The notes under the pieces are model-generated. The model made no database searches. It had not been told where the DNA came from and saw only the letters and a list, made by a program, of their open reading frames with translations. Of a stretch of 60,554 nt of DNA, positions 687 to 60,504 are shown one piece after another (the first letter of the stretch is position 1; the number at the start of each line of letters is the position of its first letter). Made by a program: the position numbers and the translations under genes. Source of the stretch: Candidatus Woesebacteria bacterium (lineage in GTDB: Bacteria > Patescibacteriota > Microgenomatia > UBA12405); the NCBI GenBank assembly GCA_035450165.1, contig DAOTMI010000002.1, forward strand, positions 12,343 to 72,896. The letters are read 5' to 3'.

Positions 687-1394
687 ATGATTAATCAACT
701 TTCTGTTTTTTTTCCGGCTTATAACGAAGAGGCCAATTTAGAAAATACCGTCGACAAAGCCATCCCTATTCTTAAGGAAATTTTCTCAAAATGGGAAATA
801 ATTATTATTAACGATGGGTCTAAAGATAAAACAGGAGAAGTTGCTCTTAAAATCCAAAAAAAATACAAAAATGAGGATCTTAAAATTATTACTCATTCAC
901 CCAATCGCGGCTATGGTGCCGCTCTCAAAAGCGGTTTTTATAATGCCAAATACTCTTGGATTACTTTTACCGATGCCGATGGTCAATTCGATTTCAACGA
1001 TATTAAAGAATTTATCGCTACTCAAACTAAAACCCAAGCCGACTTGGTTATTGGCTACTACCTTGGCCGCAAGGTTCCTTTTATCCGTAAATTCGGTTCA
1101 TTCTGTTGGCAATTAGCCGTTTTCCTTCTTTTTGGCCTAAAAGTCCGTGATATTGACTGCGGTTTCAAACTTATCAATAAAAAGGTAATTGAAACGATCC
1201 CAAAATTAGAGGCAGAAAGAGGACCTTTTATTTCTTCTGAATTATTGATTAAAGCCAAACGGGCCGGATTTAAAATTGTCGAAGTTGGCGCCCACCACTT
1301 CGAACGCCAAGCCGGTACCGCCACTGGTTCCAATTTAAACGTAGTTCTGGCTGGTCTAAAAGATCTTGTTCGTTTACGTTTTAAAATAAAATGA
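687..1394 (+). CDS. GT2 polyprenyl-phosphate glycosyltransferase (DPM1/ArnC/GtrB-like)
   Basis: Motifs FFPAYNEE, IIINDGSKDKT, NRGYGAALKSG, FTDADGQF and a C-terminal amphipathic region. An ATGA overlap couples it to the downstream GT-C gene. Confidence 0.8.
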   Translation: MINQLSVFFPAYNEEANLENTVDKAIPILKEIFSKWEIIIINDGSKDKTGEVALKIQKKYKNEDLKIITHSPNRGYGAALKSGFYNAKYSWITFTDADGQFDFNDIKEFIATQTKTQADLVIGYYLGRKVPFIRKFGSFCWQLAVFLLFGLKVRDIDCGFKLINKKVIETIPKLEAERGPFISSELLIKAKRAGFKIVEVGAHHFERQAGTATGSNLNVVLAGLKDLVRLRFKIK

Positions 1395-2866
1395 AAATAT
1401 TACCAAACGTCAAAATCCCCCCGTCCACCATTGGCGGACATCCCCCTTTGGCAAAAGAGGGATTATCATGGCGGATTCATCGACGTGACGTCTTAATTTT
1501 GATTTTAATTCTAATCGTCTCTGCTTTCTTTCGGTTATATAGAATTGATGGCTACATGGAGTTTTTAGGTGACCAAGGAAGAGACGCTATTATTATTCGC
1601 GACTTCCTCAAGCACGGCAATTTGTTTTTCATCGGCCCGCCGACCAGTATCGGTCATATGTATCTCGGTCCTTATTATTATTATTTAATTTCGCCATTTT
1701 TATGGCTTTTTAACTTTAATCCGGTGGGATTAGCGGTCTTCGTAGCTATTTTAGGAGTAGCTACCACTTATTTATTTTATTTTGTCGGCTCCCGTTGGTT
1801 TAACCGGGCTATCGGCCTAACTGCGGCTTTTCTCTTTGCTATTTCGCCAGTAGCCATCAAATATAACACTTTTTCCTGGAATCCCAATGTAATGCCATTT
1901 TTTGCCCTCCTTTTTGTCTACTGTCTAATAGAAAAGAAATATATTTGGGCTTCTTTGGCTTTTATTGGCTGTCTTAATTCCCATTATTTTAGCTTGGCTC
2001 TCCTGCCTTTAGCTGGCCTTTACTGGCTAATCAATTACAAAAAAGACGACCTTAAACCAACTATCGCCGCCATTATCATCTTCTTAATTTCACTCACTCC
2101 TCAAATCCTTTTTGATCTCAAACATCAGGGCACTAATGCCCAAGCTTTCAAAACCTTTTTCACTCAGCGGGAAACAACTGTCAGTATTTTACCTTATAAG
2201 GCGGTACCTAAACTTTTCCCCACTATAAACAATATCAATAGCCGCCTTATTTACGGCAAAAACACTACTATAGCCCCTTATCTAACGATCGTTTGGGTGA
2301 TTTTTCTAATCTACGGAATTTGCCGCTTTAAAGATAAAAAAGTTATTTGGCTTTCTCTTTGGCTTTTAATTGGAGCCACCGCTTTTGCTCTTTATAAAAA
2401 TCACATTTATGATCATTATTACGGTTTTATTGTACCGGCAGTTTTTCTTTTAACTGCTTATCTGATTAATAAAATAAAAATGGTGGGAATCCCGCTGGGA
2501 ATTATTATTGTCACTCTATCACTTATAGAAAATCCCCTTCGTTATCCGCCCAATAATCAGCTCAAAACCACTCGAGCTATTGATGAATTAATTATTCAGG
2601 ATGCTAACCAACAGGAGTTTAATTTTGCCCTGCTTTCTAAAATGAACTACGCTGATCCCTACCTTTATTTTTTCGAGGGTTCAAAATTAGTCGATACTCA
2701 CACAAAAATTACTGATCAACTTTATGTTGTTTGCGAACCATTTCAAATTGACTGCCAACCGATTAACAATCCAGAGTGGGGGATTGCTTCTTTTGGTTGG
2801 GCTAAAATTGACAAGCAGTGGGAAATCAACGGCATTAAAATCTTCCGCTTAGTTCATAATAAATAG
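1391..2866 (+). CDS. Polytopic GT-C-type membrane glycosyltransferase (ArnT/PMT/GT39-like)
   Basis: 491 aa with multiple hydrophobic helices. It has the GPYYYYLISPF motif shared with the 3351..4811 paralog and follows a DPM1-like GT2. Its N-terminal tail contains repeat copy A. Confidence 0.65.
   Translation: MKILPNVKIPPSTIGGHPPLAKEGLSWRIHRRDVLILILILIVSAFFRLYRIDGYMEFLGDQGRDAIIIRDFLKHGNLFFIGPPTSIGHMYLGPYYYYLISPFLWLFNFNPVGLAVFVAILGVATTYLFYFVGSRWFNRAIGLTAAFLFAISPVAIKYNTFSWNPNVMPFFALLFVYCLIEKKYIWASLAFIGCLNSHYFSLALLPLAGLYWLINYKKDDLKPTIAAIIIFLISLTPQILFDLKHQGTNAQAFKTFFTQRETTVSILPYKAVPKLFPTINNINSRLIYGKNTTIAPYLTIVWVIFLIYGICRFKDKKVIWLSLWLLIGATAFALYKNHIYDHYYGFIVPAVFLLTAYLINKIKMVGIPLGIIIVTLSLIENPLRYPPNNQLKTTRAIDELIIQDANQQEFNFALLSKMNYADPYLYFFEGSKLVDTHTKITDQLYVVCEPFQIDCQPINNPEWGIASFGWAKIDKQWEINGIKIFRLVHNK
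1423..1465 (+). repeat. Two-hairpin REP/MITE-like element, copy A, embedded in frame in a CDS
   Basis: Hairpin 1: GTCCACC-att-GGCGGAC (1423..1439, one mismatch). Hairpin 2: TCCCCCTTT-ggca-AAAGAGGGA (1441..1462). It ends in TTA and translates as GGHPPLAKEGL. Confidence 0.7.
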
Positions 2867-2867
2867 T

Positions 2868-2903
2868 TTAATCTCCCTTTTGTAAAGGGAGATGTCCGCC
2901 ACC
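2868..2903 (-). repeat. REP/MITE-like element, copy B, inverted relative to copies A and C
   Basis: The reverse complement reads GGTGGCGGACATCTCCCTTTACAAAAGGGAGATTAA. The hairpin is TCTCCCTTT-tgt-AAAGGGAGA (2872..2892). It starts one base after the stop of the 1391..2866 gene. Confidence 0.7.
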
Positions 2904-2986
2904 TGAAAAAGCTAGCTAGGGCAAACCGTAAAAATCCAACCAAATCCGAATTACTATTTTGGCATATAATAGCTCGAAAAAATAAG

Positions 2987-3415
2987 TTGGGATACCGATT
3001 CTTAAGGCAAAAACCAGTCAGTAACTTTATCATCGATTTTTATTGCTTTAAGCTAAAATTAGCTATAGAAATCGATGGTGACAGTCACGACGTCAAGGAT
3101 GAAGATGATTACCGAAGAGACATGAATTTGAGAAAAATAGGAATCAAGACAATTCGATACCAAAACGACCAAATTATTTACCAACTTGAAAATGTTTATT
3201 ATGATTTGGAGCAAAGGATTAGGGACAGAGAAAAAGAATTAGCAATTAATCCCCCGCCCCGACAGTCGTCGGGGCACCCCCTTTACAAAAGGGGGATTAA
3301 CAGGAAAGGTCAAAAAAGGGTTCCTGAAAGGAGAGAATGTGCCGCATTTGTCACTCCGTATATCCCAGCAGGGGATCGAGAGTTAAAGCTGGGTCGTCAC
3401 AAACCTGGGAATTAA
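2987..3415 (+). CDS. DUF559 (Vsr-like) endonuclease-domain protein; start uncertain and possibly degenerate
   Basis: Core sequence GYRFLRQKPVSNFIIDFYCFKLKLAIEIDGDSH...RD..L...G...IR. The frame is open from 2867 and encodes the family-typical ELLFWHIIARKNKL helix upstream of the first canonical start (TTG at 2987). The C-terminal tail reads through repeat copy C and overlaps the convergent gene. Confidence 0.6.
   Translation: MGYRFLRQKPVSNFIIDFYCFKLKLAIEIDGDSHDVKDEDDYRRDMNLRKIGIKTIRYQNDQIIYQLENVYYDLEQRIRDREKELAINPPPRQSSGHPLYKRGINRKGQKRVPERRECAAFVTPYIPAGDRELKLGRHKPGN
3256..3300 (+). repeat. Two-hairpin REP/MITE-like element, copy C
   Basis: Hairpin 1: GCCCCGAC-agtc-GTCGGGGC (3256..3275). Hairpin 2: CCCCCTTT-aca-AAAGGGGG (3277..3295). 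It ends in ATTAA. Confidence 0.7.
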
Positions 3416-4811
3416 CTTCAACCTCCTTTTTGTTTTTGATTACCCCAATTAAGCCAAATTTAGCTGTCAATTCCTTATCGCTTTGGGCGAAAGGAATAAC
3501 CAAATCGTATTGGGGAACATTTTCATGTGTTTTAACCACCTTCATTCCTTTATTCCAAAACAGATATCTAAAGCCGACACCATCGCCAAACTTAGCTATA
3601 TAATTAACGGAAATGCAGGGATAATTTTTAGATTTAGCATCGGCGACAATGAACTCAACTGCTTGTTCTTTATAAAAATATGAATCATTTAGTTGGGTAT
3701 AACGATTCAGCCAAAAAATATTTAAACCAAGATAGCCGGCTAGAAATATTCCCAAAACAGTTCTATTTGACAATATTTCACTGATAGATAGGGAAAAGAT
3801 AATAAAAAATAAAATCACTAAATTAGTGAAATAATATTCGGAAACAATCCGTTTAGAAACAAATTGAGCCCAACAGATGAGAAAAATCCATAACCATATA
3901 AAAATAGCCTGTTTTGCCGTAATTTTTTTAATTTTTAAGAGATAAATCATGGCAATAATAAAAACCGGCCAAATTAATTCCACCCGGTAAGTTTCCCAAC
4001 CCCTTACTAATCTTATTTGCAATTCCTGACTGGCCGCATTAAGGACTTTAAGAAATTTTGCCTTGCCGGTTGGAGCTCCAATATCTACTTGAGTAGCCGC
4101 CATCATTCCCTTAACCTCTGACCAATTATGTTTTAATTCAAATAACCAAAATGGACTGCTGAAAATCAAAAAAATCGCAATACAACCCAAATATTCCTTT
4201 AATTTTATCCGACTAAATTTTTCTTTTAAACTGCCCCTGGAAACCGCATAGGCTAAGATCGGCAAAGGTAAAATAGGCAGCAGGGCAATGTGAATGTGAT
4301 AAACCATTCCTAATAAAAAGCCGTATAAATAGATAATTTTTTTATCACCCTCGAGGGCTTTAAAGATAACATATAAAAACCAAATCGACCAAAGAATCGT
4401 CGGCTGAGTTGGCACCGACCAACGTTGAAAAAGAGCTATTCCCGTAGAAACGGCCATTAAAAAGGCACTAATTAAACCAGCTCTTTTACCCCAAAACTCT
4501 TTAACAACAAAATAAAGACTCCAAATGGAAAATAAACCAATAGCCGTAACTGGAATAATAGCACTCATGGGATTCATCCTAAAAATCCAATAAAATAAGG
4601 CAATTAAATAATAGTAAAATGGCCCGATAAAAACACCCGGAATACTGGTAACTTGGCCGACTAACCTTAAATGGCGATTGACAATAATATCTCTGGCAAT
4701 CCAGGAATAAAGATCTTGATCATGATTCCAAATTAAACTTAATTTAAAGTTATAAACTAGAAAAAATAACCCAAGGACTAGAATTCCCAGCAGTTTTCTC
4801 CTATCATTCAT
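3351..4811 (-). CDS. Polytopic GT-C-type membrane glycosyltransferase (ArnT/PMT/GT39-like), paralog of 1391..2866
   Basis: 486 aa and highly hydrophobic. GPFYYYLIALF and the surrounding block align by eye with GPYYYYLISPF in 1391..2866. Confidence 0.65.
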   Translation of the reverse strand: MNDRRKLLGILVLGLFFLVYNFKLSLIWNHDQDLYSWIARDIIVNRHLRLVGQVTSIPGVFIGPFYYYLIALFYWIFRMNPMSAIIPVTAIGLFSIWSLYFVVKEFWGKRAGLISAFLMAVSTGIALFQRWSVPTQPTILWSIWFLYVIFKALEGDKKIIYLYGFLLGMVYHIHIALLPILPLPILAYAVSRGSLKEKFSRIKLKEYLGCIAIFLIFSSPFWLFELKHNWSEVKGMMAATQVDIGAPTGKAKFLKVLNAASQELQIRLVRGWETYRVELIWPVFIIAMIYLLKIKKITAKQAIFIWLWIFLICWAQFVSKRIVSEYYFTNLVILFFIIFSLSISEILSNRTVLGIFLAGYLGLNIFWLNRYTQLNDSYFYKEQAVEFIVADAKSKNYPCISVNYIAKFGDGVGFRYLFWNKGMKVVKTHENVPQYDLVIPFAQSDKELTAKFGLIGVIKNKKEVEVNSQVCDDPALTLDPLLGYTE

Positions 4812-4813
4812 AT

Positions 4814-5578
4814 ATGGATTATAACGCTGTCAGTGTGGTAATTCCTTGTTATAACGAGGAAGAAAACTTAAAAAGAGGGGTTTTGGACCAAGTTGATAAT
4901 TTTTTAAAAAAACAAACATTTCAATGGGAAGTTATTATTGCTAATGACCATTCATCCGACCAAAGTTTAAAGCTGATTCAAAATTTTATTAAAAACCATG
5001 ATAAATTTAGAGTCTTAGATTTACCCCACGGCGGCAAACCCAGCGCTGTTTATGCCGGCATTAAAGCCGCCAAATATAATTTTGCCCTTTTCACCGACAT
5101 GGACCAATCAACACCTATTAGTGAATTAATAAAATTAATGCCGTACTTAAGGGATTTTGATCTCATTATTGGTTCACGCGGAACAACCCGAAGCGGTAAT
5201 AATCTGCTTCGCCGATTAGGGGCCCGAATTTTTTTAACTCTCCGTCGGTGGATTATTTTGCCCGAGATCAATGATACCCAATGCGGCTTTAAAATTATCA
5301 GAACTGATTTGGCTAAGAAAATATTTCCACGATTGTCTTTCTTTCAGGAAAATATTAAAGGTGGTTGGCGGGTTTCGGCTTTTGATGTGGAAATGCTTTT
5401 TATGGCTCAAAAATGGGGTTATAAAATAAAAGAAGTGCCGGTATTATGGCAAAATCAAGATATTTCTCAAACTAAGGGCAATCGAACCAATAATTATTTC
5501 AAAGAATCAATCCAAATGGTCAAAGAAATTTGGCAGGTCAGAAAAAACGACTATCATGGTAAATATGAAAAAAAATAA
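4814..5578 (+). CDS. GT2 polyprenyl-phosphate glycosyltransferase-like (DPM1/ALG5-like)
   Basis: Motifs VVIPCYNEEENL, IIANDHSSD, HGGKPSAVYAG and FTDMDQSTP. Confidence 0.75.
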   Translation: MDYNAVSVVIPCYNEEENLKRGVLDQVDNFLKKQTFQWEVIIANDHSSDQSLKLIQNFIKNHDKFRVLDLPHGGKPSAVYAGIKAAKYNFALFTDMDQSTPISELIKLMPYLRDFDLIIGSRGTTRSGNNLLRRLGARIFLTLRRWIILPEINDTQCGFKIIRTDLAKKIFPRLSFFQENIKGGWRVSAFDVEMLFMAQKWGYKIKEVPVLWQNQDISQTKGNRTNNYFKESIQMVKEIWQVRKNDYHGKYEKK

Positions 5579-6974
5579 TTGGCTTAGTTTAGGCATTATC
5601 AGCGGCCTCTATTTTCTTTCCCGACTGATTAATCTTACTAAATTACCGATTTTTTGCGATGAGGCTATTTATCTCCGTTGGTCACAGATTATCAAAGCCG
5701 TTGAAACCCTCCGATTTATCCCTTTAAGTGATGGTAAACAACCCCTATTTATGTGGTTAACAGTTCCTTTTTTAAAACTGTTTAATGATCCATTAATGGC
5801 TGGCCGTTTTGTCTCTGTTTTGGCTGGTTTTGGCACTTTGGTTGGCATTTATCTCATTACCTGCCTGATTGCCAACCAAAAAACAGCTCTAATAGCCACC
5901 CTTATTTATTTAGTTCTTCCCTTTACCTTCTTTTTTGACCGATTGGCTTTAGCCGATAATCTCCTGTCCATGTTTGGGGTTTGGTCGCTTTATTTTTCTC
6001 TTCTTATCACTAAGTATCCTCGACTAGATTTAGCCATGATTTTGGGAATTACCCTCGGTCTGGCCTGGTTGACCAAATCGCCGGCTATTTATTTCATTGT
6101 TTTGGCTTTTTTTACCATCATTCAGAAGCAGGCTAAAAAATTTTACTTGCCGATTATTTCGGTAATTTTTGCCCTGATCATTTATAATATTCTTCGCCTG
6201 GGACCGCAATTTCATCTCATCGCCCTGCGTAATCGCGATTACGTTTGGCCAGTTATGGAAATTCTCAAGCATCCTTTCGACCCGTTTAAACCTCATCTGG
6301 TTGATATTTTTAATATTTACAAACAATATCTCGGTCTGCCGTTTTTCTTTCTTTTCTTTACTCAATTTAACCCGATTTTATGGGCTTGGTTCATTCTACC
6401 CCTTCTGGCAACCAGTATTATCGCTAAGGTTTTTACCGCTCGTTATATTCTTTTTTCTCTGCCGCCGCTTATTATTTTATTAGCCTTAGCTTTAGGTAAA
6501 ATTAAAAATAAGCTCATTTTAGGCGGCTTAATCCTAACTTTTATTCCCGGGATTCTCTTTATCCATCGGTTAACAATTGACCCCTTCCATCAAAAATTAC
6601 CCCCGACCGAAACCGGTTATTTGAGCGGTTGGACAGCTGGTTGGGGTATTAAAGAAGCGGCTGATTATTTAAAGGAGCGGGCTAAACAGACCAATGTTAT
6701 TGTCGGTACTGAAGGTTATTTCGGCACTCTGCCTGACGGTCTTCAAATTTATACTAATGATGTTGAGCAGTTAACTATTCTAGGAGTTGGCTTAGATATC
6801 AGTCAAATTCCGCCATCTTTAACTGACGCTTTTCAGCATGGCGACGAGGTTTATCTTTTATTCAACCAAAGCCGATTAAAATTAAGTCCCCAGGAAAAAG
6901 AAAAAGTTAATCTGGTAAAATCATACCCTAAGCCAGATAACGATAATCTAGAACTTTACCAAATAATCAAATGA
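5556..6974 (+). CDS. GT-C membrane glycosyltransferase (ArnT/GT39/GT83-like)
   Basis: 472 aa and polytopic, with the N-terminal loop motif LPIFCDEAIYLRW and a soluble C-terminal domain. An alternative ATG lies at 5565. Confidence 0.65.
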   Translation: MVNMKKNNWLSLGIISGLYFLSRLINLTKLPIFCDEAIYLRWSQIIKAVETLRFIPLSDGKQPLFMWLTVPFLKLFNDPLMAGRFVSVLAGFGTLVGIYLITCLIANQKTALIATLIYLVLPFTFFFDRLALADNLLSMFGVWSLYFSLLITKYPRLDLAMILGITLGLAWLTKSPAIYFIVLAFFTIIQKQAKKFYLPIISVIFALIIYNILRLGPQFHLIALRNRDYVWPVMEILKHPFDPFKPHLVDIFNIYKQYLGLPFFFLFFTQFNPILWAWFILPLLATSIIAKVFTARYILFSLPPLIILLALALGKIKNKLILGGLILTFIPGILFIHRLTIDPFHQKLPPTETGYLSGWTAGWGIKEAADYLKERAKQTNVIVGTEGYFGTLPDGLQIYTNDVEQLTILGVGLDISQIPPSLTDAFQHGDEVYLLFNQSRLKLSPQEKEKVNLVKSYPKPDNDNLELYQIIK

Positions 6975-8665
6975 AAAAATTGATTCAAAAACATTGTCTC
7001 TTAATTATTCTTCTATTTTCTTTACCGGCTTGGGTTAACCTCCTGCGGCCGGTGTATTGGAATATGCATGATGATATGCAATTAATCCGCCAGCTTGAAT
7101 TTGAAAAATGCCTAAATGACGGACAAATTCCTTGTAGATGGACTCCAGATCTTGGCTACGGCTATGGTTACCCTCTTTTTAATTTTTACCCCCCTTTACC
7201 CTATCTTGTCGGTCAATTTTACCGTTTTCTCGGCTTTAGCTTCATCAATACTGTCAAATTAACTGCTATTACCCAAATTATTTTAGCCACTTTAGCCATG
7301 TATTACCTGGCTAAAGTTTTCTTTCCACCATTGAGTACTATCCTAGTAACTTTGTTATACACGTATGCTCCTTACCATGCCGTCAATATTTACATCCGCG
7401 GCGCCATGAATGAAGCTTGGGCCAGTGTTTTTTTCCCCCTTTGTTTTCTCTTCTCCTACCGTCTTATCAAAACCCCTAAAACTAATAATCTTATATTTTT
7501 AGCCCTAGCTTACGCCGGTTTGCTTTTAAGTCACAATCCAATGGCCTTAACTTTTTTTCCCTTTCTCCTGGCTTGGATTATTTTCTGGCTGATTATTTTT
7601 AAAAAATATCAAAAGATTAAAATATATCTCAATTTTGTTTATGCTGGTCTTTTGTCTCTTGGTTTAACGGCCTTTTTTACCCTGCCGGTTATTTTTGAAA
7701 GTCGACTAGTTCAAGTCGAAACTATGTTTCGAGATTATTTTCACTACTCGGTTCATTTCGTTTCTCTTTTTCAACTATTTATTAGTAATTTTTGGGGCGA
7801 TGGCCCGTCTGTCTGGGGAACAGGTGACCAAATGTCCTTTATGATTGGTCTTCTTCACTGGTTGATTCCTCTTCTTACTTTAGTAATAATCATCTTCCTG
7901 GCTTTTACAAAAAAATTGGAATGGAAAAAATATCGGTTATTCTTTCTTCTTCTCCTCCTTGCCCTTGGAGCCACTTTCATGACTCATGGTCGATCGACGT
8001 TTATTTGGCAATCAATTCATGTAATTCAAAAAATGCAGTTCCCATGGCGTTTTCTCAATCAAGCCGCTTTTTTCTTTTCTCTGTCTTCAGGTTTTTTCCT
8101 TCTCCTATTTAAAAATAAGAAAAGGGAATTGGTTTCTTTTTTTACTCTTTTAGTTTTAATTATTTTAATTAATGCTCATCATTTTCGTTTTGTTACGGCC
8201 GGACCGATTACCGATGAGCAAAAGTTTTCTGGTCAAGCCTGGACTAATCAGATAACCTCTGGTATTTACGATTATTTACCCAAAACTGCTGGGCGAGCGG
8301 CCACGGCCCCAGCCAACTTCCCCATTGACATGGTTAATCCTCCTCAGAGTCAATATGAGCTTAATGGAGTTAAACATGGCACCGATTGGTTCCTCTTTAA
8401 TATCAAACTCAATTATCAAACCGAATTAACCTTAGCTCAGTTAGCCTTTCCTAATTTTGAAATAAAAGACAACGGTCGACCAATCAATTACTTGATTGAA
8501 AAAGATTTAGGGCGAATGGTTATTTCTCTTCCTCGAGGTGAGCACCAAATTTATGTCAAGTTAAGGAATACTCCCATTCGCCATCTAGCCAATTTTATTT
8601 CTCTTTTAAGTTGGATCGGATTACTTGCTTACTTTTCTCAAAACTTATGGAAGAAATCAACTTAG
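6971..8665 (+). CDS. Large polytopic membrane protein, putative GT-C-like, family unresolved; paralog of 21785..23284
   Basis: 564 aa. It contains the motif MHDDMQLIRQLEFEKCLNDGQIPCRWTPDLGYGYGYPLFNFYPP, a C-terminal soluble domain, and a terminal anchor NTPIRHLANFISLL. Confidence 0.45.
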   Translation: MKKLIQKHCLLIILLFSLPAWVNLLRPVYWNMHDDMQLIRQLEFEKCLNDGQIPCRWTPDLGYGYGYPLFNFYPPLPYLVGQFYRFLGFSFINTVKLTAITQIILATLAMYYLAKVFFPPLSTILVTLLYTYAPYHAVNIYIRGAMNEAWASVFFPLCFLFSYRLIKTPKTNNLIFLALAYAGLLLSHNPMALTFFPFLLAWIIFWLIIFKKYQKIKIYLNFVYAGLLSLGLTAFFTLPVIFESRLVQVETMFRDYFHYSVHFVSLFQLFISNFWGDGPSVWGTGDQMSFMIGLLHWLIPLLTLVIIIFLAFTKKLEWKKYRLFFLLLLLALGATFMTHGRSTFIWQSIHVIQKMQFPWRFLNQAAFFFSLSSGFFLLLFKNKKRELVSFFTLLVLIILINAHHFRFVTAGPITDEQKFSGQAWTNQITSGIYDYLPKTAGRAATAPANFPIDMVNPPQSQYELNGVKHGTDWFLFNIKLNYQTELTLAQLAFPNFEIKDNGRPINYLIEKDLGRMVISLPRGEHQIYVKLRNTPIRHLANFISLLSWIGLLAYFSQNLWKKST

Positions 8666-11651: not shown

Positions 11652-11666
11652 TAAAATAAAAATATC

Positions 11667-14298: not shown

Positions 14299-14353
14299 AA
14301 AACTGAAAAATTCGAGGATGTATTTTTTAATTCGTAATTCGTAATTTTTAATT
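14280..14353. repeat. 17-bp perfect inverted repeat spanning the stop codon; an AT-rich hairpin that could be a terminator or protein-binding site
   Basis: AATTAAAAATTACGAAT (14280..14296) pairs with ATTCGTAATTTTTAATT (14337..14353), leaving a 40-nt loop. Confidence 0.6.
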
Positions 14354-14372
14354 AAATTAAATTAAATTAAAT
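14329..14372. repeat. Microsatellites: (AATTCGT)x2 plus a degenerate third unit, then (ATTAA)x4.4
   Basis: Heptamers at 14329..14349 and pentamers at 14351..14372, directly abutting the ATG at 14373. Confidence 0.7.
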
Positions 14373-17410: not shown

Positions 17411-17417
17411 AGGGTTA

Positions 17418-31878: not shown

Positions 31879-31888
31879 ATATTTTATA

Positions 31889-48164: not shown

Positions 48165-48168
48165 CGAT

Positions 48169-49089: not shown

Positions 49090-49530
49090 GTGAAAAAAAA
49101 ACTTTTGATCTTTATCTTGCTATTCTCGATTATCTTATCAGTCATGACCGTTTTTTCCCGAAAAAATACTCATCAATTAATCATTAATGGCAGGAATTAT
49201 CAAATAGAATATGCCCTAACTGAGGCCCAAATTACCAAAGGACTTTCTGGTCGAACTTCTCTTTGCTCTAACTGCGGCATGCTTTTTGTTTTCAATAATG
49301 AAGGAATTTTACCATTTTGGATGAAAGATACTCTGATTCCTCTTGATATAATCTGGATTGACGGTAGCGGCAAAATAGTTCATTACGTTAACGCCACCAC
49401 CACTAATTCCCTTGAAACCTATCAAAATTCTATTCCGGCTAGGTATGTTTTGGAGCTTAATTCGGGTGATTTTAATAAATTAGGTTTAAAAATCGGCGAT
49501 GAAATTCTCAATTATCATTCCCAATTATAA
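49090..49530 (+). CDS. DUF192-domain secreted protein
   Basis: An N-terminal signal or anchor, then GLSGR....CGMLFVF....FWMKDTLIPLDIIWID..GKIV. Confidence 0.7.
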   Translation: MKKKLLIFILLFSIILSVMTVFSRKNTHQLIINGRNYQIEYALTEAQITKGLSGRTSLCSNCGMLFVFNNEGILPFWMKDTLIPLDIIWIDGSGKIVHYVNATTTNSLETYQNSIPARYVLELNSGDFNKLGLKIGDEILNYHSQL

Positions 49531-52594: not shown

Positions 52595-53132
52595 TCGCCT
52601 TCAAACCATTATTTTGGAGTTTTGGCTTTTAATTTTAAGAATTGTCGGTCATATTCCTTCCCATATGATTCGTAAGTTTTTTTACCTTCTTTCAGGCGTT
52701 AAAATGAATTACTTCAAATCAACCATCCATATAGGGGCCAATTTCTTCAAACCATCAGGGATAACCATCGGTCAAGATACTATTATCGGTGATCACTGTT
52801 TCCTCGACGGTCGAGCGCCCCTTAAAATTGGCAATCATGTCGGTATCGCCTCTCAGGTATTAATCTATAACGATGAACATGATATTAATAGCCCTACCTA
52901 CGGTAATTCTTTTGGACCAGTGGAAATTGGCGACTATGTTTTTATCGGGCCGCGAGTAATTATCCTTCCTGGTGTTAAAATTGGGCGGGGAGCAGTAATC
53001 GCCGCCGGAGCGGTGGTTACTAAAAATATTCCTGATTTTGAAATTTGGGGCGGGGTCCCCGCTCGAAAAATAGCCGATCGTCAAATTAAAAATCCCAGTT
53101 ACAAACTGGGTCGAGCAATGCTTTTTCAATGA
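52575..53132 (+). CDS. Hexapeptide-repeat (LbH) sugar O-acyltransferase (WcaF/MAT-like)
   Basis: Repeated [LIV]-G-x4 hexapeptides (IGDHCFLDG, IGNHVGIAS, IGDYVFIGP, IGRGAVIAAGAVV) ending in WGGVPARKI. Confidence 0.75.
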   Translation: MMPKILNRLQTIILEFWLLILRIVGHIPSHMIRKFFYLLSGVKMNYFKSTIHIGANFFKPSGITIGQDTIIGDHCFLDGRAPLKIGNHVGIASQVLIYNDEHDINSPTYGNSFGPVEIGDYVFIGPRVIILPGVKIGRGAVIAAGAVVTKNIPDFEIWGGVPARKIADRQIKNPSYKLGRAMLFQ

Positions 53133-54582: not shown

Positions 54583-55952
54583 ATATTTTAAGGCCAATTT
54601 TAGCAATTCTGATCATTTTTATTCCTCTTTATCCCAAATTTCCCTTATGGGGAGTGGCTGATACTTACGTGGCTATTCGTTTAGACGATTTAGTCGTGGC
54701 AATAGCTGTTTTCATCTGGCTTCTTTACCAAATTAAACATCATTTTCCAATTCTAAAAGAAAAAATAACTTGGCTTGTTTTGGCTTACTTAGCGGCTATT
54801 TTGCTCAGCACCCTTTACGCCATTTTTATTTTCCAGGTAGTTTCATCTCATCTTCTTATTTTAAATTTTCTCCGTCGAATCGAATACATATCTCTTATGT
54901 TTATTACTATTTCCGCTGTTCAAAATAAAAAGGATTTAAATTTCACTTATATTTCTCTCATCATTACCGTCCTACTGGTTTCTATTTACGGATTTGGTCA
55001 AAAATATCTTCATTTTCCTGTTATCTCAACTATGAATTCAGAATTTTCTAAAGGACAACTCCTTCAGATGGATGTTTGGACAAGGATTAGCTCCACTTTT
55101 GCCGGCCATTATGATTTAGCCGCTTACTTAACTCTAGTTCTGATTATTATTGGCAGTTTATTTTTAATTAGCCGCTCAAAATCCTCAAAATACATTAGTT
55201 TAATCACCTGGTTGATCGGCTTTAGTCTTCTTAATTTAACTGCTTCTCGAATTTCCACTTTTGCATTTTGGGGAGGAATGATTTTAGCCTTGATTTTCAT
55301 CAAAAAGTATCTTTGGATTATTCCTTTTTCAATCTTAATGATTTTTAGCATTATCAACTCCAAAGATCTTAATCGACGGCTCGTGGCAACCTTGAACTAT
55401 CTGCCCCAACACTTTCCTTCTCTTCCTCAACAATCACCATTAACCAACACTCTTACTCCTACCCCTGTCTCTAGTCCAACCGTAACCCAATCAACTCCAA
55501 CCACAATTCTCTCTTCCAAACCTGTCCCTACTGTCTTTCATCATCTACCGGCAATAGAAGAATTTCCATCAATCGATACTGATGCCGGAGTAGCCCGATC
55601 GGGCGAAATTAGATTCAATGCTGAGTGGCCACGGGCGATTAATGCCTTCAAACGCAATATTTTTCTTGGCAGCGGTCCAGGCTCAATTACCTTAGCCACT
55701 GATAACGATTATCTACGTCTTCTGGGTGAAAGTGGTCTTTTGGGTTTAATTACCTTCTTAATTATCTTCCTCTATTTTATCTATCAAACAATTAAAAAGC
55801 CGAGTCATTTGGCATTTATTTTTCTCGCTTGTTTAATAGCCACTGGAGCCAACGCCCTTTTTATTGATGTTTGGGAAGCTTCTAAGTTTGCTTACACCTT
55901 TTGGATTATGATGGGTATTTACTATCAGGTTTTAAAATTTAATAATGACTAA
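54579..55952 (+). CDS. O-antigen ligase/polymerase-like (Wzy_C-type) polytopic membrane protein with an inserted Pro/Thr/Ser-rich loop
   Basis: About 457 aa with 10 or more helices and a large external loop. I prefer the ATG at 54579 (ATGA overlap) over 54528. Confidence 0.5.
   Translation: MNILRPILAILIIFIPLYPKFPLWGVADTYVAIRLDDLVVAIAVFIWLLYQIKHHFPILKEKITWLVLAYLAAILLSTLYAIFIFQVVSSHLLILNFLRRIEYISLMFITISAVQNKKDLNFTYISLIITVLLVSIYGFGQKYLHFPVISTMNSEFSKGQLLQMDVWTRISSTFAGHYDLAAYLTLVLIIIGSLFLISRSKSSKYISLITWLIGFSLLNLTASRISTFAFWGGMILALIFIKKYLWIIPFSILMIFSIINSKDLNRRLVATLNYLPQHFPSLPQQSPLTNTLTPTPVSSPTVTQSTPTTILSSKPVPTVFHHLPAIEEFPSIDTDAGVARSGEIRFNAEWPRAINAFKRNIFLGSGPGSITLATDNDYLRLLGESGLLGLITFLIIFLYFIYQTIKKPSHLAFIFLACLIATGANALFIDVWEASKFAYTFWIMMGIYYQVLKFNND
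55404..55532 (+). other. Pro/Thr/Ser-rich low-complexity segment inside the Wzy-like CDS
   Basis: Encodes PQHFPSLPQQSPLTNTLTPTPVSSPTVTQSTPTTILSSKPVPT. Confidence 0.85.
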
Positions 55953-57297
55953 AAAAATTTTAATTCTGGTGACTTTAATTTTGGGACTTATTGTCCGCCT
56001 TTATAAAATTGACAGCCCTATAGCTGACTGGCATTCCTGGCGCCAGGCCGACACTGCCTCGGTCACCAAAAATTTTATTAATCACACTGGTACTTTTTTC
56101 ATTCCCACTTACCATGACCTATCTAATATCCCTTCTGGTCAAGAAAATCCCCATGGCTACCGAATGGTAGAATTACCAATTTATAATTTGATTGCGGCGG
56201 GGTTATCCAAATTTTGCTCTGTCGAAATCGCCTCTCGATTAGTTTCCATCTTCTTCTCTCTTGGCAGTGCCCTTCTAGTTTATTTTATTACTATCAGTTG
56301 GACTAAGAACTTTAAAATCGGTTTCTTCGCTTTTAGCATTTTTCTCTTTCTCCCTTTTAATATCTACTATTCTCGAACAATTCTGCCTGAACCAACAGCA
56401 GTTTTTTTTATGCTCCTCTCTCTCTATTTATTTACAACCAACTTTTATCTTAGTGCCATTGCTTTAGCTATTTCGGTTTTAATTAAACCTTATACCGCTC
56501 TTCTTCTTTTCCCTATTTTTTTATTTCTGTCCTGGCATAAAAAAATAACTGCTAAATTTGCCTTCTGCTTAATTGCCTTCTTACCCCTATTTTTCTGGCG
56601 CCTCTGGATAAAAAACTTTCCCGCCGGTATTCCTGCTTCGGCTTGGCTTTTTAATGGCGGCAAGATGCGCTTTCGACCAGTCTGGTTCCGTTGGTTATTT
56701 TATGAAAGAATAGGCAAATTAATTATGGGAGTCTTAGGGGTTATCCCTCTTTATTTGGGTTTGGCTTTCCGAAAAAACAAAAATCGATCACTTTGCTTTT
56801 TTCTTTTCCTCGGCATTTTAACTTATTTTAGTGTCATTGCTAGAGGAAATATCCAACATGACTATTACCAAATTTTAATCATCCCCTTTATCGCCATAAT
56901 CACCGGTATTGGGCTAAATTATATGTTTAAATTCTCGTCATTTTTGGGCACCATTATCGTCATTATTTTTGCCTTGGCTTTTTCCTGGTACCAAATAAGA
57001 GATTATTACATTATTGACCCAGCCATAGTTGAGGCTGGCCAAGCCGCCCAACAACTTCTTCCGAAAGATGCTTGGGTTATTGCTCCACGTAATGGTGATA
57101 CTGCTTTTCTTTACCAAACGAATCATGCCGGCTGGCCAATCGAAATCTATGATTTAGAAACTCTTAAGAGTCGTTACCCTGAAAAAAAGTTCTATTTAGT
57201 AACTGTTAATAAAAACAGTTATACTACCGAATTAAAAGAAAAATATTCCGTTATAATAGACAATAATAACTATACTATAGTAGATTTAAATAAATGA
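55945..57297 (+). CDS. GT-C membrane glycosyltransferase (GT39/PMT_2/ArnT-like)
   Basis: Has the first-loop motif ADWHSWRQADTASVTKNF and is polytopic at 450 aa. Confidence 0.65.
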   Translation: MTKKILILVTLILGLIVRLYKIDSPIADWHSWRQADTASVTKNFINHTGTFFIPTYHDLSNIPSGQENPHGYRMVELPIYNLIAAGLSKFCSVEIASRLVSIFFSLGSALLVYFITISWTKNFKIGFFAFSIFLFLPFNIYYSRTILPEPTAVFFMLLSLYLFTTNFYLSAIALAISVLIKPYTALLLFPIFLFLSWHKKITAKFAFCLIAFLPLFFWRLWIKNFPAGIPASAWLFNGGKMRFRPVWFRWLFYERIGKLIMGVLGVIPLYLGLAFRKNKNRSLCFFLFLGILTYFSVIARGNIQHDYYQILIIPFIAIITGIGLNYMFKFSSFLGTIIVIIFALAFSWYQIRDYYIIDPAIVEAGQAAQQLLPKDAWVIAPRNGDTAFLYQTNHAGWPIEIYDLETLKSRYPEKKFYLVTVNKNSYTTELKEKYSVIIDNNNYTIVDLNK

Positions 57298-58508: not shown

Positions 58509-59397
58509 CTACAAATCCTCCGATTATCTGGCCAAATGCCTTAAAAGCATTTATGCTTCAAAGTTAGGTAAATATAAAGTGGAAATTATTGTTGTTGATA
58601 ATCACTCTCCTGATAACAGCATCAAATTAGCTCAGTCTCTTAAACCTTTACTAATTACTAATTACTATTTACTAAATACCAACAACGGTTTCGCTTATGG
58701 TAATAATATTGGCGTTAAACATGCCGACAAAAACTCTCGTTATCTTCTCTTTCTCAACCCCGACACCACCGTCAAACCAGATACTTTTTATCACTGCCTT
58801 CAATTTATGGATCAACACCATGAAGCAGCGGCCATGACAGTTAAAATAAATTTAGCTAAAACCGGTAAGATTCAACCAGAATGTCATCGTGGTTTTCCTT
58901 ATCCTTGGCGATCGTTTTGTTACTTTACCGGCCTTTATAAATTAGCACCTCATTCTGCCTTTCTTAATGGTTATTTTCAGGGCAATTTAGACCTAAATAC
59001 AATTCATCCTATTGAAGCCTGCGTCGGTGCCTTTCTTTTGGTTCGAAAAACAGTTGGAGATCAATTAAAATGGTGGAATGAAAAATATCGTTTCTATGGC
59101 GAGGATCTCGACTTTTGTTTTAAATTAAAAATTTCAAATTTTAAATTATACTACTATCCCTACACCAGTATTAATCACTATCAAGGTATTTCTTCCGGGT
59201 TAAAATCCCAAACCAAACAATTAACAACAGCCGATAGAACCACTAAAATTAGGACTGCCAAAGCATCTACTGAAGCGATGCGAATCTTTTATCAAGAAAA
59301 CCTCTTAAAAAACTATAATTTTCTCATTAAATATTTAGTTTTACTTGGGATAAATATTCTAGAAATTTATCGCGTTTTCAAAGCAAAACATTTATAG
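58483..59397 (+). CDS. GT2 glycosyltransferase
   Basis: Motifs LSIIILNYKS, IIVVDNHSPDNS, NNGFAYGNNIG, FLNPDT and GEDLDFCFK. Confidence 0.75.
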   Translation: MDLSIIILNYKSSDYLAKCLKSIYASKLGKYKVEIIVVDNHSPDNSIKLAQSLKPLLITNYYLLNTNNGFAYGNNIGVKHADKNSRYLLFLNPDTTVKPDTFYHCLQFMDQHHEAAAMTVKINLAKTGKIQPECHRGFPYPWRSFCYFTGLYKLAPHSAFLNGYFQGNLDLNTIHPIEACVGAFLLVRKTVGDQLKWWNEKYRFYGEDLDFCFKLKISNFKLYYYPYTSINHYQGISSGLKSQTKQLTTADRTTKIRTAKASTEAMRIFYQENLLKNYNFLIKYLVLLGINILEIYRVFKAKHL

Positions 59398-59427
59398 CTA
59401 GTAATCAGCAAATAGAAATTATAATTT

Positions 59428-60504
59428 ATGAAAAGGATTTTAATTGATGCTCGGCTTTACGGTCCGAAACATACCGGAATTGGTCGTTATACCAAGAATT
59501 TACTATTAGCCTTGGCTGATTTACCCGATTTTTCCAACTATCAGTTTTCAGTTCTGGTAGCTGAACTGCACCCTGAACTAAAAAAATATCACCAAATTGT
59601 TACCAATATCCGCCATTACTCCTGGCAAGAACAGATTTTTCTACCATCGATGATCTATAACTTGCAACCTCACTTGGTGCATTTTACTCACTTTAATAAG
59701 CCTATTTTTTACCATGGCTCATCAGTAATTACCATTCACGACTTGATTAAACATTTTTTTACTGGCCAAGCAACAACTACTAAAAGCCCATTGCTATATT
59801 GGCCGAAACAGTGGCTCTATTTGCTTATTACCAAAATTAATATCAAAAATAATTACCTAATTACCCCCAGCAACTTTTGGCGCCGATATATATTGGATAC
59901 ATATCGGATCAAACCGGAAAAAATCATTACTACCTATGAAGCCGTCGATCCAAAATTGCTTGCGGGGGTGTGTGAAACGCGCCCCCATACTAAAAATTAC
60001 ATATTGTATACCGGCAATCTTTACCCCCATAAAAATCTTCAAGTAGTAATTGAAGCTCTCCAATATCTGCCGCAAATAAAATTAAAAATTATTTGCAGTC
60101 GGGATTACTTTCTAGAAAAATTTAAACAAAAACATCACGACAATCCCCAAATTGAATTTCTTGGTTTTGTTCCAGATGAAAAATTTAAAGAAATTTATTC
60201 TCAAGCTTTGTGCTTAGTCCACCCTTCATTAATGGAGGGATTTTCTCTTACTGGCTTAGAAGCTATGGCCTTAAATTGTCCGGTAATTGCCAGCAATGCC
60301 TCATGCTTGCCTGAAATTTACAGTGATTCTGTCCTTTATTTTGATCCCCATAATCCCTTGGATTTGGCCCAAAAAATTAAGTTGCTTACTCCCGAATATC
60401 GCCAACAATTAATTAAAAAAGGTCATCAGCAGGTCAAAAAATATTCCTGGCAAAAAACTGCTCGGCAAACTTTAGATTTTTACAAAAAAATACTAGACCA
60501 GTAA
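59428..60504 (+). CDS. GT4 glycosyltransferase
   Basis: Contains TGIGRYTKNL, GNLYPHKN and MEGFSLTGLEAMALNCPVIASNASCLPEI. Confidence 0.75.
   Translation: MKRILIDARLYGPKHTGIGRYTKNLLLALADLPDFSNYQFSVLVAELHPELKKYHQIVTNIRHYSWQEQIFLPSMIYNLQPHLVHFTHFNKPIFYHGSSVITIHDLIKHFFTGQATTTKSPLLYWPKQWLYLLITKINIKNNYLITPSNFWRRYILDTYRIKPEKIITTYEAVDPKLLAGVCETRPHTKNYILYTGNLYPHKNLQVVIEALQYLPQIKLKIICSRDYFLEKFKQKHHDNPQIEFLGFVPDEKFKEIYSQALCLVHPSLMEGFSLTGLEAMALNCPVIASNASCLPEIYSDSVLYFDPHNPLDLAQKIKLLTPEYRQQLIKKGHQQVKKYSWQKTARQTLDFYKKILDQ

Follow-up and report, generated by a model that had tools for sequence, protein, structure and literature searches.

A conserved locus with 13 GT-C-type membrane glycosyltransferases points to an elaborate cell-surface sugar coat in a Patescibacteria lineage

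A glycan locus of about 64 kb

The window analysed here is a stretch of 60,554 nucleotides from a Candidatus Woesebacteria bacterium (contig DAOTMI010000002.1 of assembly GCA_035450165.1), and it is dominated by genes for glycan building. We read these genes as nearly the whole of a cell-envelope glycan locus of about 64 kb, the likeliest product of which is a wall-linked heteropolysaccharide that would be made in part in the cytoplasm and then be extended, branched and joined outside the membrane by 13 glycosyltransferases (GTs) of the GT-C type; the probability of this reading is put at roughly 55%. Direct results of the analysis are the assignment of the genes to families, the GT-C fold, the extent of the locus and its conservation, and the locus points to an elaborate cell-surface sugar coat.

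Between positions 687 and 60504 the list of open reading frames (ORFs) gave 55 coding sequences and one DUF559 fragment. Glycan-building enzymes are encoded by 37 of these 55-56 genes (13 GT-C, one Wzy-like, 14 GT2 and 9 GT4), which is the number that a first-pass annotation, made from the letters alone, had arrived at. The GT-C genes total 19.8 kb, which is 33% of the window. The statement that there is almost no intergenic DNA also held, i.e., the lengths of the coding sequences add up to 98.9% of the window, 46 of the 55 genes are on the plus strand, and of 42 neighbour pairs on one strand 33 have overlapping reading frames.

Both flanks of the window are covered by a 126-kb contig from what is essentially the same organism. 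This contig revealed that the locus does not end at 60504, as had been assumed, but continues for about 4.2 kb with a GT4 gene and the following two genes, and it is thus about 64 kb long:

1.6 kb past the window end: priming phosphoglycosyl transferase (PGT); Bac_transf 203 bits, polyprenyl glycosylphosphotransferase model EPS_sugtrans 258 bits
Past the window, terminal gene of the locus: DUF4012 protein, 625 aa; also at the locus end in a relative with a 998-kb genome

On the left the locus is preceded by genes in the order SecA, release factor, LCP (LytR-CpsA-Psr), FtsE, FtsX, M23 peptidase and DUF11 surface protein, with the LCP gene about 4 kb upstream. On the right the DUF4012 gene is followed by RecO, an aminoacyl-tRNA synthetase (HisS-like), RsmH, a penicillin-binding protein (PBP)/FtsI and a Mur ligase. 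The locus has the cell-division genes FtsEX and M23 on one side and the dcw cell-wall cluster on the other.

For three different proteins of the locus, the homologues that carry a taxon name (45-60% identity) belonged to Candidatus Shapirobacteria, Microgenomates, Woesebacteria or Patescibacteria, and the relatives have single contigs of 949-998 kb. The organism is an ultrasmall bacterium of the candidate phyla radiation (CPR), the kind of small-genome host that had been suspected, and is of the Shapirobacteria type. As the relatives have about 1 Mb, the locus makes up about 6% of the genome, where several percent had been predicted.

The 13 GT-C membrane proteins

Genes are named by their start position, and a trailing "-" marks the minus strand. 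Every ORF was scanned with Pfam and the results were judged against the gathering scores of the families. The 13 polytopic candidates were the following (TM, transmembrane; TM1, first TM helix):

1391-2866, plus strand: GT-C (PMT_2), 491 aa; PF13231 26.8 bits; paralogue of 3351- (E 3e-29); about 7 TM helices
3351-4811, minus strand: GT-C (PMT_2), 486 aa; PF13231 49.7 bits; DxD (D31, D33) after TM1
5556-6974, plus strand: GT-C (PMT_2), 472 aa; PF13231 59.1 bits; CDE after TM1
6971-8665, plus strand: GT-C (YfhO/PTPS_related-like), 564 aa; weak YfhO match, 18.4 bits; 35% identity to 21785 (E 4e-83); HDD after TM1
10062-11651, plus strand: GT-C with C-terminal alpha/beta domain, 529 aa; no Pfam, NCBIfam or PDB-sequence match
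18312-19442, plus strand: GT-C (GT87, PimE-type family), 376 aa; PF09594 31.4 bits, gathering score 25; about 8 TM helices
19985-21685, plus strand: GT-C (PMT_2), 566 aa; PF13231 30.0 bits; NDE after TM1
21785-23284, plus strand: GT-C (PTPS_related/YfhO-like), 499 aa; PF10131 26.7 bits, gathering score 26.4; paralogue of 6971
23263-24885, plus strand: GT-C (PMT_2), 540 aa; PF13231 32.2 bits; PF02366 sub-threshold; WDE after TM1
24875-26434, plus strand: GT-C (PMT_2), 519 aa; PF13231 25.0 bits, just under the gathering score of 26.1; 37% identity to 26355 (E 1e-93 to 4e-93); WDE after TM1
26355-27929, plus strand (longest ORF; the true start may be 26421, the start first annotated): GT-C (PMT/PMT_2), 524 aa; PF02366 22.7 bits, at the gathering score; PF13231 24.2 bits; EpsG 26.2 bits; PDE after TM1
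41553-43274, minus strand: GT-C (PMT_2-like, about 10 TM helices) with C-terminal TPR domain, 573 aa, TMTC-like architecture; in Pfam TPR only, residues 405-573
55945-57297, plus strand: GT-C (PMT), 450 aa; PF02366 26.7 bits, gathering score 22.7; phmmer link to the PMT_2 group

That all 13 are GT-C-fold enzymes, as first annotated, is supported by Pfam, by paralogy, by profile comparison with hhalign, by AlphaFold2 and Foldseek for 10062, and by acidic motifs after TM1. Nine of the 13 reached the gathering score of a Pfam GT-C family (PMT_2, PMT, GT87 or PTPS_related), 26355 exactly at the cutoff. Eight proteins (1391, 3351-, 5556, 19985, 23263, 24875, 26355 and 55945) form an old paralogue group with identities of 23-37%, and their scores to the PMT_2 or PMT models reach or nearly reach the gathering score. 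The pair 6971/21785 was connected with the profile of the PMT_2 paralogues by hhalign (91.3%, E 9.5e-7), and its families, PTPS_related and YfhO, are members of the GT-C clan. Each of the 13 has 6-10 hydrophobic segments in a Kyte-Doolittle scan, which is crude and probably undercounts. An acidic motif (DE, DD, DxD or HD) with a predicted catalytic role is located about 5-20 residues after TM1 in all 13 proteins, and it is invariant in both family alignments that were built (10062 and 41553-).

For 41553- the top Foldseek hits of the full-length model were all to the TPR domain and none was informative on the membrane domain; because the TPR domain dominated this search, a trimmed profile was used with hhalign instead. 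The profile of the membrane domain (41 homologues) matched the PMT_2 paralogues with 96.8% (E 2.1e-10, 302 columns). In addition, PF13231 was found in several homologues, and S64-D65-D66-Y67 is invariant in the family alignment. Sequence searches against PDB chains with 10062, 41553- and 5556 gave no useful match for the membrane domains, and NCBIfam gave no informative match for the uncertain membrane proteins and small ORFs.

Gene 10062, a GT-C protein without a family model

The AlphaFold2 model of 10062, based on a 41-sequence alignment, had a pLDDT of 90.7 and a pTM of 0.90. Foldseek analysis revealed that all 15 top matches were GT-C proteins, i.e., DPY19 (E 3.5e-8), AglB, STT3, AftA, PglB and ArnT, and unrelated membrane proteins appeared only at probabilities below 0.2. 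The likeness to STT3, PglB and AglB is at the level of the fold only, with TM-scores of 0.43-0.48. H43-D44 after TM1 is invariant in the family alignment. Neither an STT3 model (Pfam, NCBIfam) nor a WWDYG-type motif (consensus and invariant columns of 10062) was found. The gene overlaps the end of wzx, and relatives of the family were present in 174 species-representative genomes in a scan with one genome per species.

The polytopic proteins could also have been transporters, an alternative that the first-pass annotation had named for checking by profile and structure searches. It was ruled out: the controls Wzx, Wzy-like protein and LPG_synthase_TM scored below 1% against the PMT_2 profile in hhalign, in contrast to 91-97% for the candidates, and non-GT-C proteins stayed below 0.2 among the structural matches of 10062.

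The families of these proteins bear on a second reading, according to which the locus would serve mainly protein O-glycosylation. The PMT_2/PMT-type and TPR-fused GT-C proteins, fed by the short GT2 proteins, would act on secreted or surface proteins, e.g., pilins, S-layer proteins or DUF11-type adhesins, and the Wzy_C protein and the oligosaccharyltransferase-like 10062 would move a Wzx-flipped oligosaccharide onto proteins. GT-C protein glycosylation with lipid-phosphate sugars occurs in actinobacterial Pmt, in eukaryotic PMT/TMTC and in Streptococcus mutans Pgf, and the Wzy_C family includes O-oligosaccharyltransferases. The PMT_2 or PMT matches of the eight paralogues agree with this reading, as do the GT-C and TPR architecture of 41553-, whose homologues carry the JGI name "protein O-mannosyl-transferase", the peptide-modifying closest structures of 10062 (DPY19, AglB, STT3, PglB) together with the overlap of its gene with wzx, and the DUF11 surface-protein gene that abuts the locus. 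However, PF13231 also spans ArnT-type enzymes that modify lipids and glycans, and the family name thus leaves the acceptor unfixed. No protein of the window matched MIR or PMT_4TMC in Pfam, PF02366 was found only at or near the threshold in 26355 and 55945 and sub-threshold in 23263, and the lack of an STT3 match and of a WWDYG-type motif in 10062 also speaks against it, as do the flanks, which consist of cell-wall and cell-division genes. We consider this reading plausible for a part or the whole of the GT-C set, but less probable than the preferred one.

Cytoplasmic glycosyltransferases and candidate donor synthases

The 14 GT2 and nine GT4 genes of the window are:

687-1394, plus strand: short GT2, 235 aa, no TM helix; PF00535 100.6 bits; near full-length to ArnC, Dol-P-hexose transferase and PpgS models, below equivalog cutoffs
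4814-5578, plus strand: short GT2, 254 aa, no TM helix; PF00535 79.6 bits; NCBIfam PgfS (second-best), ArnC and Dol-P-hexose transferase, below cutoffs
29735-30490, plus strand: short GT2, 251 aa, no TM helix; PF00535 82.9 bits; PpgS near full-length (12-233 to 4-218 of 226), ArnC and PgfS, below cutoffs
11667-12602, plus strand: GT2; PF00535 74.5 bits
12602-13534, plus strand: GT2; PF00535 48.5 bits
13459-14298, plus strand: GT2; PF00535 55.9 bits
14373-15551, plus strand: GT4; PF00534 82.1 bits
15548-16420, plus strand: GT2; PF00535 89.4 bits
17418-18257, plus strand: GT2; PF00535 88.3 bits
27926-28735, plus strand: GT2; PF00535 67.7 bits
28726-29754, plus strand: GT4; PF00534 74.1 bits
30474-31433, plus strand: GT2; PF00535 49.7 bits
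33333-34337, plus strand: GT2; PF00535 84.3 bits
34325-35416, plus strand: GT4; PF00534 102.3 bits
35983-37095, plus strand: GT4; PF00534 100 bits
37076-38191, plus strand: GT4-type; hhalign to the other GT4 proteins
49499-50407, plus strand: GT2; PF00535 89 bits
50391-51503, plus strand: GT4; PF00534 69 bits
51500-52594, plus strand: GT4; PF00534 102.2 bits
53662-54582, plus strand: GT2; PF00535 88.7 bits
57294-58508, plus strand: GT4; PF13692 46.6 bits, PF00534 33.1 bits
58483-59397, plus strand: GT2; PF00535 76.8 bits
59428-60504, plus strand: GT4; PF00534 104.4 bits

Both counts were the same as in the first-pass annotation. All 14 GT2 genes exceeded the gathering score of PF00535, and eight GT4 genes (14373, 28726, 34325, 35983, 50391, 51500, 57294 and 59428) exceeded that of PF00534. 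The ninth, 37076, had only 24.9 bits to Glyco_transf_4, where 28.5 are required, and was assigned by hhalign to the other eight (96.3%, E 1.6e-9).

Only 687, 4814 and 29735 could be aligned over their length to models of polyprenyl-phosphate sugar synthases (ArnC, Dol-P-hexose transferase, PpgS, PgfS, AglJ); the remaining 11 GT2 proteins could not be aligned in this way, and 11667, 12602 and 13459 had no likeness to such synthases. The best PDB matches of 687 were ArnC (9bhc, 3.7e-16), GtrB (5ekp, 2.8e-13) and DPMS (5mlz, 7e-12). By their likeness to these enzymes, the three proteins probably supply lipid-phosphate sugars to the GT-C enzymes. This is indirect support for the view of the first-pass annotation that GT-C enzymes use polyprenyl-phosphate sugars. 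Gene 687 is directly upstream of GT-C gene 1391 and 4814 of 5556, the frames overlap, and 3351- is divergent. This pairing of GT2 and GT-C genes (687-1391, 4814-5556) is kept in more than 40 species. The PgfS match of 4814, second-best in NCBIfam, is one more point for protein O-glycosylation, but 13 GT-C enzymes, 23 cytoplasmic GTs, an ABC polymer exporter and a PGT exceed the needs of any known system of that kind.

Conservation in the lineage

The locus was compared with related loci by a scan that was based on the 10062-family alignment and used one genome per species; the 80 best loci were all from species other than that of the window. The search for synteny in CPR relatives, which the first-pass annotation had proposed, was rewarded: the genes from 687 to 17418 follow one essentially invariant order in 42 further loci, each 20 kb or longer, with amino-acid identities of 37-72% and a median of six GT-C-like genes per 21 kb. 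This order runs 687 – 1391 – (3351-) – 4814 – 5556 – 6971 – wzx – 10062 – 11667 – 12602 – 13459 – 14373 – 15548 – 17418.

In addition, the 998-kb genome GCA_049287145.1 was sampled in three segments between 682.5 and 796.8 kb (about 114 kb), with the two stretches 703.9-733.9 and 755.7-775.2 kb lying between them. All three segments were collinear with the window at about 45-60% identity. The shared right part comprises LPG_synthase_TM, DUF192, the acetyltransferase, a small ORF with two TM helices, the Wzy-like gene, a PMT_2 gene and, at the end, the PGT and DUF4012 genes as a pair. In the middle of the locus there are additional genes for GTs, methyltransferases and radical-SAM (S-adenosylmethionine) enzymes, and a full YfhO gene lies within the locus.

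As more than 40 species share the gene order, these results point to a trait conserved in a lineage of Shapirobacteria-type CPR bacteria and to a core component of the envelope, and not to a hypervariable antigen island. A surface-antigen island (O-antigen or capsule) that varies between strains under horizontal transfer and phage pressure, and is devoid of a conserved structural role, would be in agreement with the GT-rich make-up with Wzx, Wzy_C, ABC exporter, acetyltransferase and methyltransferases, with the differences between genomes in the middle part, and with the break in the assembly where the window ends, between GT4 paralogues in tandem. However, in more than 40 species the left 18 kb keep their order, at 37-72% identity, conservation is also seen at the right end, the GC content is uniform (0.31-0.38), the DUF559 fragment is the sole mobile-element-type gene found in the window, and the position between division and dcw genes is fixed on a long contig. 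A variable island is therefore very improbable; it was rejected as largely refuted by the synteny.

Several species-representative metagenome-assembled genomes (MAGs) that contain a locus of the Shapirobacteria type bear the names Methanoperedens, Clostridia, Bacteroidales or "uncultured Gammaproteobacteria". Such names seem to stem from mis-binning or to be placeholders, and do not look like a real occurrence outside the CPR.

Export, sugar supply and modification

The genes for export, sugar supply and modification in the window are:

8611-10083, plus strand: Wzx/MOP-family flippase; Polysacc_synt_3 150.6 bits; MOP flippase, TuaB and O-glycosylation Wzx models
44302-45102, plus strand: ABC-2 permease, Wzm or TagG type; PF01061 67.5 bits
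45105-45833, plus strand: ABC ATPase, Wzt or TagH type; PF00005 87.3 bits
54528-55952, plus strand: polytopic protein of the Wzy_C/O-antigen-ligase family; PF04932 22.2 bits, gathering score 31.7
48169-49074, minus strand: LPG_synthase_TM/"flippase-like domain" membrane protein; PF03706 99.4 bits; TIGR00374 38 bits, below cutoff
45837-47132, minus strand: UDP-glucose 6-dehydrogenase; three UDPG_MGDP_dh domains; NDP-sugar dehydrogenase subfamily 470 bits, cutoff 190; TuaD-like 583 bits
47193-48164, minus strand: UDP-glucose 4-epimerase GalE; TIGR01179 450 bits, cutoff 262
38188-40256, plus strand: two sugar-nucleotide dehydratase/epimerase genes of the short-chain dehydrogenase/reductase (SDR) family; PF01370 139.9 and 135.5 bits; nearest to dTDP-glucose 4,6-dehydratase and GalE models, below cutoffs
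52575-53132, plus strand: hexapeptide-repeat O-acetyltransferase (WcaF-like); PF00132 60.5 bits; WcaF family 80 bits, below cutoff
35393-35968, minus strand: SAM-dependent methyltransferase; PF08241 44.6 bits
31970-33346, plus strand: B12-binding radical SAM enzyme; PF04055 58.3 bits and B12-binding domain; HpnJ/BchE-like, below cutoffs
40250-41584, plus strand: B12-binding radical SAM enzyme; PF04055 82.8 bits; PF02310 67 bits

The wzx gene sits inside the GT2/GT-C block. For the ABC exporter the best NCBIfam models were galactan Wzm, KpsM, TagH and galactan Wzt, all below the equivalog cutoffs. The single Wzy-like protein, 54528, is weak on its own score, and its assignment was upheld by its homologues: about two-thirds of those listed carry PF04932, and some have the NCBI label "O-antigen ligase family protein". 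By its family it is a candidate polymerase, ligase or O-oligosaccharyltransferase. The protein 48169- is a candidate lipid-linked sugar flippase, and its gene is kept in the locus of the 998-kb relative.

The two export routes bear on a third reading, according to which several independent envelope-glycan systems are co-located in a streamlined genome, e.g., an ABC-exported polymer resembling teichoic acid or galactan, a Wzx/Wzy heteropolysaccharide, and lipoglycans or glycolipids that are elaborated by GT-C enzymes. The presence of both Wzx with Wzy_C and Wzm/Wzt would fit this, and so would the three separate candidate synthases of lipid-phosphate sugars, the blocks that are set off by strand switches, and the modular look of the locus in the 998-kb relative, in which the left core and the right end are fixed and the middle has insertions. 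However, only one priming PGT was seen, at the locus end, and a second primer of the WecA/TagO type could lie elsewhere. Furthermore, the collinearity over the length of the locus in a relative that is only about 45-60% identical suggests co-selection as a unit, and in lactococci and streptococci dual export routes feed one joined polymer (PMC9574508). Independent systems are regarded as less likely than a single pathway, though they deserve to be weighed.

Proposed assembly of the glycan

For the preferred reading, a wall-linked heteropolysaccharide that is extended outside, the following pathway can be proposed. Nucleotide sugars would be supplied by GalE, UDP-glucose dehydrogenase and the two SDR dehydratase/epimerases. 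The Bac_transf PGT just past the window would load undecaprenyl phosphate, and on the cytoplasmic face the 11 ordinary GT2 and the nine GT4 enzymes would build one or more lipid-linked oligo- or polysaccharides. These would be exported by Wzx and by the ABC transporter of the Wzm/Wzt type, and the Wzy_C protein may polymerise or ligate the chains. In parallel, 687, 4814 and 29735 would put single sugars on undecaprenyl phosphate, like ArnC, GtrB, GacI and Dpm1, and these donors would be flipped, perhaps by Wzx or by the LPG_synthase_TM "flippase-like" protein. Outside the membrane the 13 GT-C enzymes would take the lipid-linked donors to branch, extend or join the exported chains. Acetyl and methyl groups may be added by the WcaF-like acetyltransferase, the SAM methyltransferase and the two B12-radical SAM enzymes. 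Finally, the LCP enzyme, the gene of which lies about 4 kb upstream, would most likely link the polymer to peptidoglycan.

By analogy, the logic would be that of Gram-positive multi-component extracytoplasmic glycosylation, scaled to the mycobacterial number of GT-C enzymes. In the Gram-positive scheme a C55-P-sugar is formed by a GT-A enzyme and brought across the membrane by a flippase of the GtrA or Wzx type, after which a GT-C enzyme passes the sugar on to the exported polymer; further GT-C enzymes polymerise or join chains that are exported by Wzx and an ABC transporter, and LCP anchors the product to peptidoglycan (PMC9574508).

Several points weigh against this pathway. Product, acceptor, donor sugars, flippase identity, LCP anchoring and each mechanistic step are what we infer from homology. 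The LCP gene is parted from the locus by FtsEX, M23 and the DUF11 gene, and its link to the locus is therefore only positional. The families of the PMT_2/PMT and TPR-fused GT-C proteins include protein O-mannosyltransferases, and the best matches of 10062 (DPY19, oligosaccharyltransferases) have peptide substrates; some or many of the GT-C enzymes could therefore act on proteins. The presence of Wzx/Wzy_C plus an ABC exporter means that several products are possible instead of one. In addition, no ORF of the window matched a GtrA-family flippase in Pfam, and no small membrane ORF that could be a GacJ-like activator was found beside the short GT2 genes, the ORFs at 2867-3350 and the small ORFs of the relatives being soluble or DUF559. 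The lactococcal flippase is encoded elsewhere in the genome (PMC9574508).

The first-pass annotation had also held that the glycan is assembled largely outside the membrane. The 13 GT-C enzymes that imply this were borne out, but the conventional machinery had been underplayed. Because Wzx, the ABC exporter, Wzy_C, 23 cytoplasmic GTs and a PGT are present, the share that is built outside is one that we infer.

Comparison with known systems

The closest comparison is that with the rhamnose-rich cell-wall polysaccharide of lactococci and streptococci (rgp/cwps; CsdAB-CflA, GacIJKL, WpsG/I/J; PMC9574508). In those systems the gene of the GT-C enzyme adjoins that of the GT-A synthase, a Wzx-type flippase can serve, one chain leaves by an ABC exporter and another by Wzx, GT-C enzymes polymerise and join the chains, and LCP anchors the polymer. 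Each of these component types is also found in the window, and an LCP gene is nearby. In contrast, the rgp/cwps loci have about 20-30 kb and 1-4 GT-C genes, and not about 64 kb and 13 as here. The genes for dTDP-rhamnose (rmlABCD) were not identified in the window, which has only GalE, Ugd and two unassigned SDR genes, and homologues of GtrA/CflA and GacJ were not found in it. The hosts of these systems are Firmicutes, whereas the present host belongs to the CPR.

The first-pass annotation had compared the locus with mycobacterial assembly. In mycobacterial and corynebacterial arabinogalactan, lipomannan (LM) and lipoarabinomannan (LAM), more than ten GT-C enzymes (Emb, Aft, PimE, MptA-C) share few polyprenyl-phosphate donors, i.e., decaprenyl-phosphate arabinose (DPA) and polyprenyl-phosphate mannose (PPM), and build most of an essential wall polymer, conserved in the lineage, outside. 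The present locus shares with them a member of GT87, the PimE family, galactan Wzm/Wzt among the best ABC models, and AftA among the structural matches of 10062. However, a match to Arabinose_trans/Emb or AftA in Pfam and a UbiA-type decaprenyl-phosphoribose gene were absent from the window. Because no model of the Emb or Aft families matched, the comparison stands as an analogy of logic only; the resemblance is not one of descent, and the locus is not a member of the mycobacterial enzyme set. Moreover, the GT-C genes are clustered in one locus here and dispersed in mycobacteria, and the genomes have about 1 Mb and 4.4 Mb, respectively.

PMT (GT39), TMTC1-4, actinobacterial Pmt and S. mutans Pgf have PMT_2/PMT matches, a DE-type motif after TM1, a candidate synthase partner and a TPR fusion in common with the locus. 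They differ in that here MIR and PMT_4TMC are lacking, the scores are at or near the thresholds, and there are many more paralogues than in any known O-mannosylation system. With teichoic-acid glycosylation by CsbB/GtcA/YfhO and with GtrABC (PMC9574508) the locus shares a candidate GT2 synthase of undecaprenyl-phosphate sugars together with GT-C proteins of the YfhO/GtrC type (6971, 21785). The window contains no GtrA/GtcA flippase, however, and the known systems add single decorations, whereas the number of GT-C enzymes here implies chain building. As in ABC-dependent glycopolymer pathways (TagGH, RgpCD, Wzm/Wzt), an ABC-2 permease and an ATPase are paired within the glycan locus. Of the Wzx/Wzy pathway, the PGT, Wzx and a Wzy_C-family protein are present, but no Wzz/polysaccharide co-polymerase (PCP) model matched in the locus. 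With respect to the latter, 19426, 53129 and the DUF4012 protein are candidates by topology only.

Further genes and observations

The remaining features of the window are:

3-617, minus strand: DUF11/CLIPPER-domain protein, 205 aa; immediately upstream of the locus and divergent (L007 9314-9931)
2987-3415, plus strand: DUF559 (Vsr-like endonuclease) ORF; 71 bits, profile positions 32-107 of 109; TTG start
16413-17381, minus strand: PfkB-family sugar kinase (ribokinase-like); PF00294 155.4 bits; ribokinase model 115 bits, below cutoff
19426-20001, plus strand: ORF of 191 aa; no family match; TM helices at about residues 7 and 170; kept beside the GT87 gene in several relatives
31450-31917, minus strand: ORF of 155 aa; no Pfam or NCBIfam match
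43277-44242, minus strand: YvcK/CofD-related protein; PF01933 126.4 bits; YvcK model 143 bits, below cutoff
49090-49530, plus strand: DUF192 protein; PF02643 96.1 bits
53129-53665, plus strand: ORF of 178 aa; no family match; TM helices at about residues 6 and 150; an ORF of 180 aa at the same position in the relative

In both 19426 and 53129 a loop of some 130 residues separates an N-terminal from a C-terminal TM helix, which is the topology of Wzz/WpsH-type co-polymerases; homology between the two was not detectable. The DUF11/CLIPPER protein is a candidate surface protein and a possible target of glycosylation. The YvcK/CofD-related gene, which belongs to a family of UDP-sugar-binding cell-wall regulators, and the PfkB kinase gene are embedded on the opposite strand within the locus.

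Two B12-radical SAM genes were found in the glycan locus of an organism that is unlikely to make cobalamin, and in the matching region of the 998-kb relative there are five radical-SAM genes, of which two encode a B12-binding domain. The B12-radical SAM enzymes might C-methylate or otherwise modify sugars.

The DUF559 ORF lies between two PMT_2 genes, runs into the 3' end of 3351- and is also present in identical contigs. At its position the 998-kb relative has an unrelated, soluble ORF of 98 aa. The DUF559 ORF may be the remnant of a mobile or restriction-related gene.

Both the window and CAZBAE010000002.1, a MAG contig at NCBI, end about 50 bp after gene 59428. The 126-kb assembly (L010 11078-14685) continues past this break with a paralogous GT4 gene, the priming transferase and DUF4012. 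The break was probably caused by the tandem GT4 paralogues or by strain variation.

The GC skew is negative across the whole window (-0.01 to -0.30 per 2-kb window), i.e., the coding strand is C-rich. This is probably a lineage trait, since a continuous G/C disparity between the strands was reported for several complete genomes of the Microgenomates order UBA1400 (PMC7143001).

Significance for the envelope of CPR bacteria

In the literature on GT-C-rich loci in CPR, Patescibacteria, Microgenomates and Shapirobacteria only generic remarks on the abundance of GTs were found, and a characterised system of this composition did not turn up, as the first-pass annotation had expected. GTs are numerous in the CPR and the envelope is not understood (PMC5220378, PMC8080830, PMC7143001); genome papers count "20" or "29" GTs, and state that the envelope "remains unclear" (PMC5220378, PMC7143001). 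The enzyme classes and the logic of the present locus are known, and its scale, its clustering, its conservation in a minimal genome and one GT-C family without a model are new.

What the CPR/Patescibacteria envelope is made of is an acknowledged gap in knowledge, and the locus offers a concrete, bounded and conserved set of genes. It comprises three candidate lipid-phosphate sugar synthases, 13 outward-facing transferases with identifiable motifs, two export routes and one primer, all of which can be tested. The new GT-C family of 10062 and the divergent GT-C paralogues would be useful for studying how acceptor specificity evolves. As CPR organisms live attached to or dependent on other cells, host recognition, phage defence and immune-like interactions are functions for which their surface glycan is a leading candidate.

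A bolder version of the wall-polymer reading is put forward tentatively. It holds that the product is a lineage-defining and probably essential envelope polymer, which is built largely outside the membrane by at least 13 dedicated GT-C enzymes and takes up 6-11% of a 1-Mb genome, that 10062 represents an unrecognised GT-C family found almost only in this lineage, and that the system is a counterpart of the mycobacterial arabinogalactan/LAM strategy that evolved independently. If it is true that a polymer is built mainly outside, this would be a new type of envelope layer in the CPR, which could mediate attachment to hosts or protection from them.

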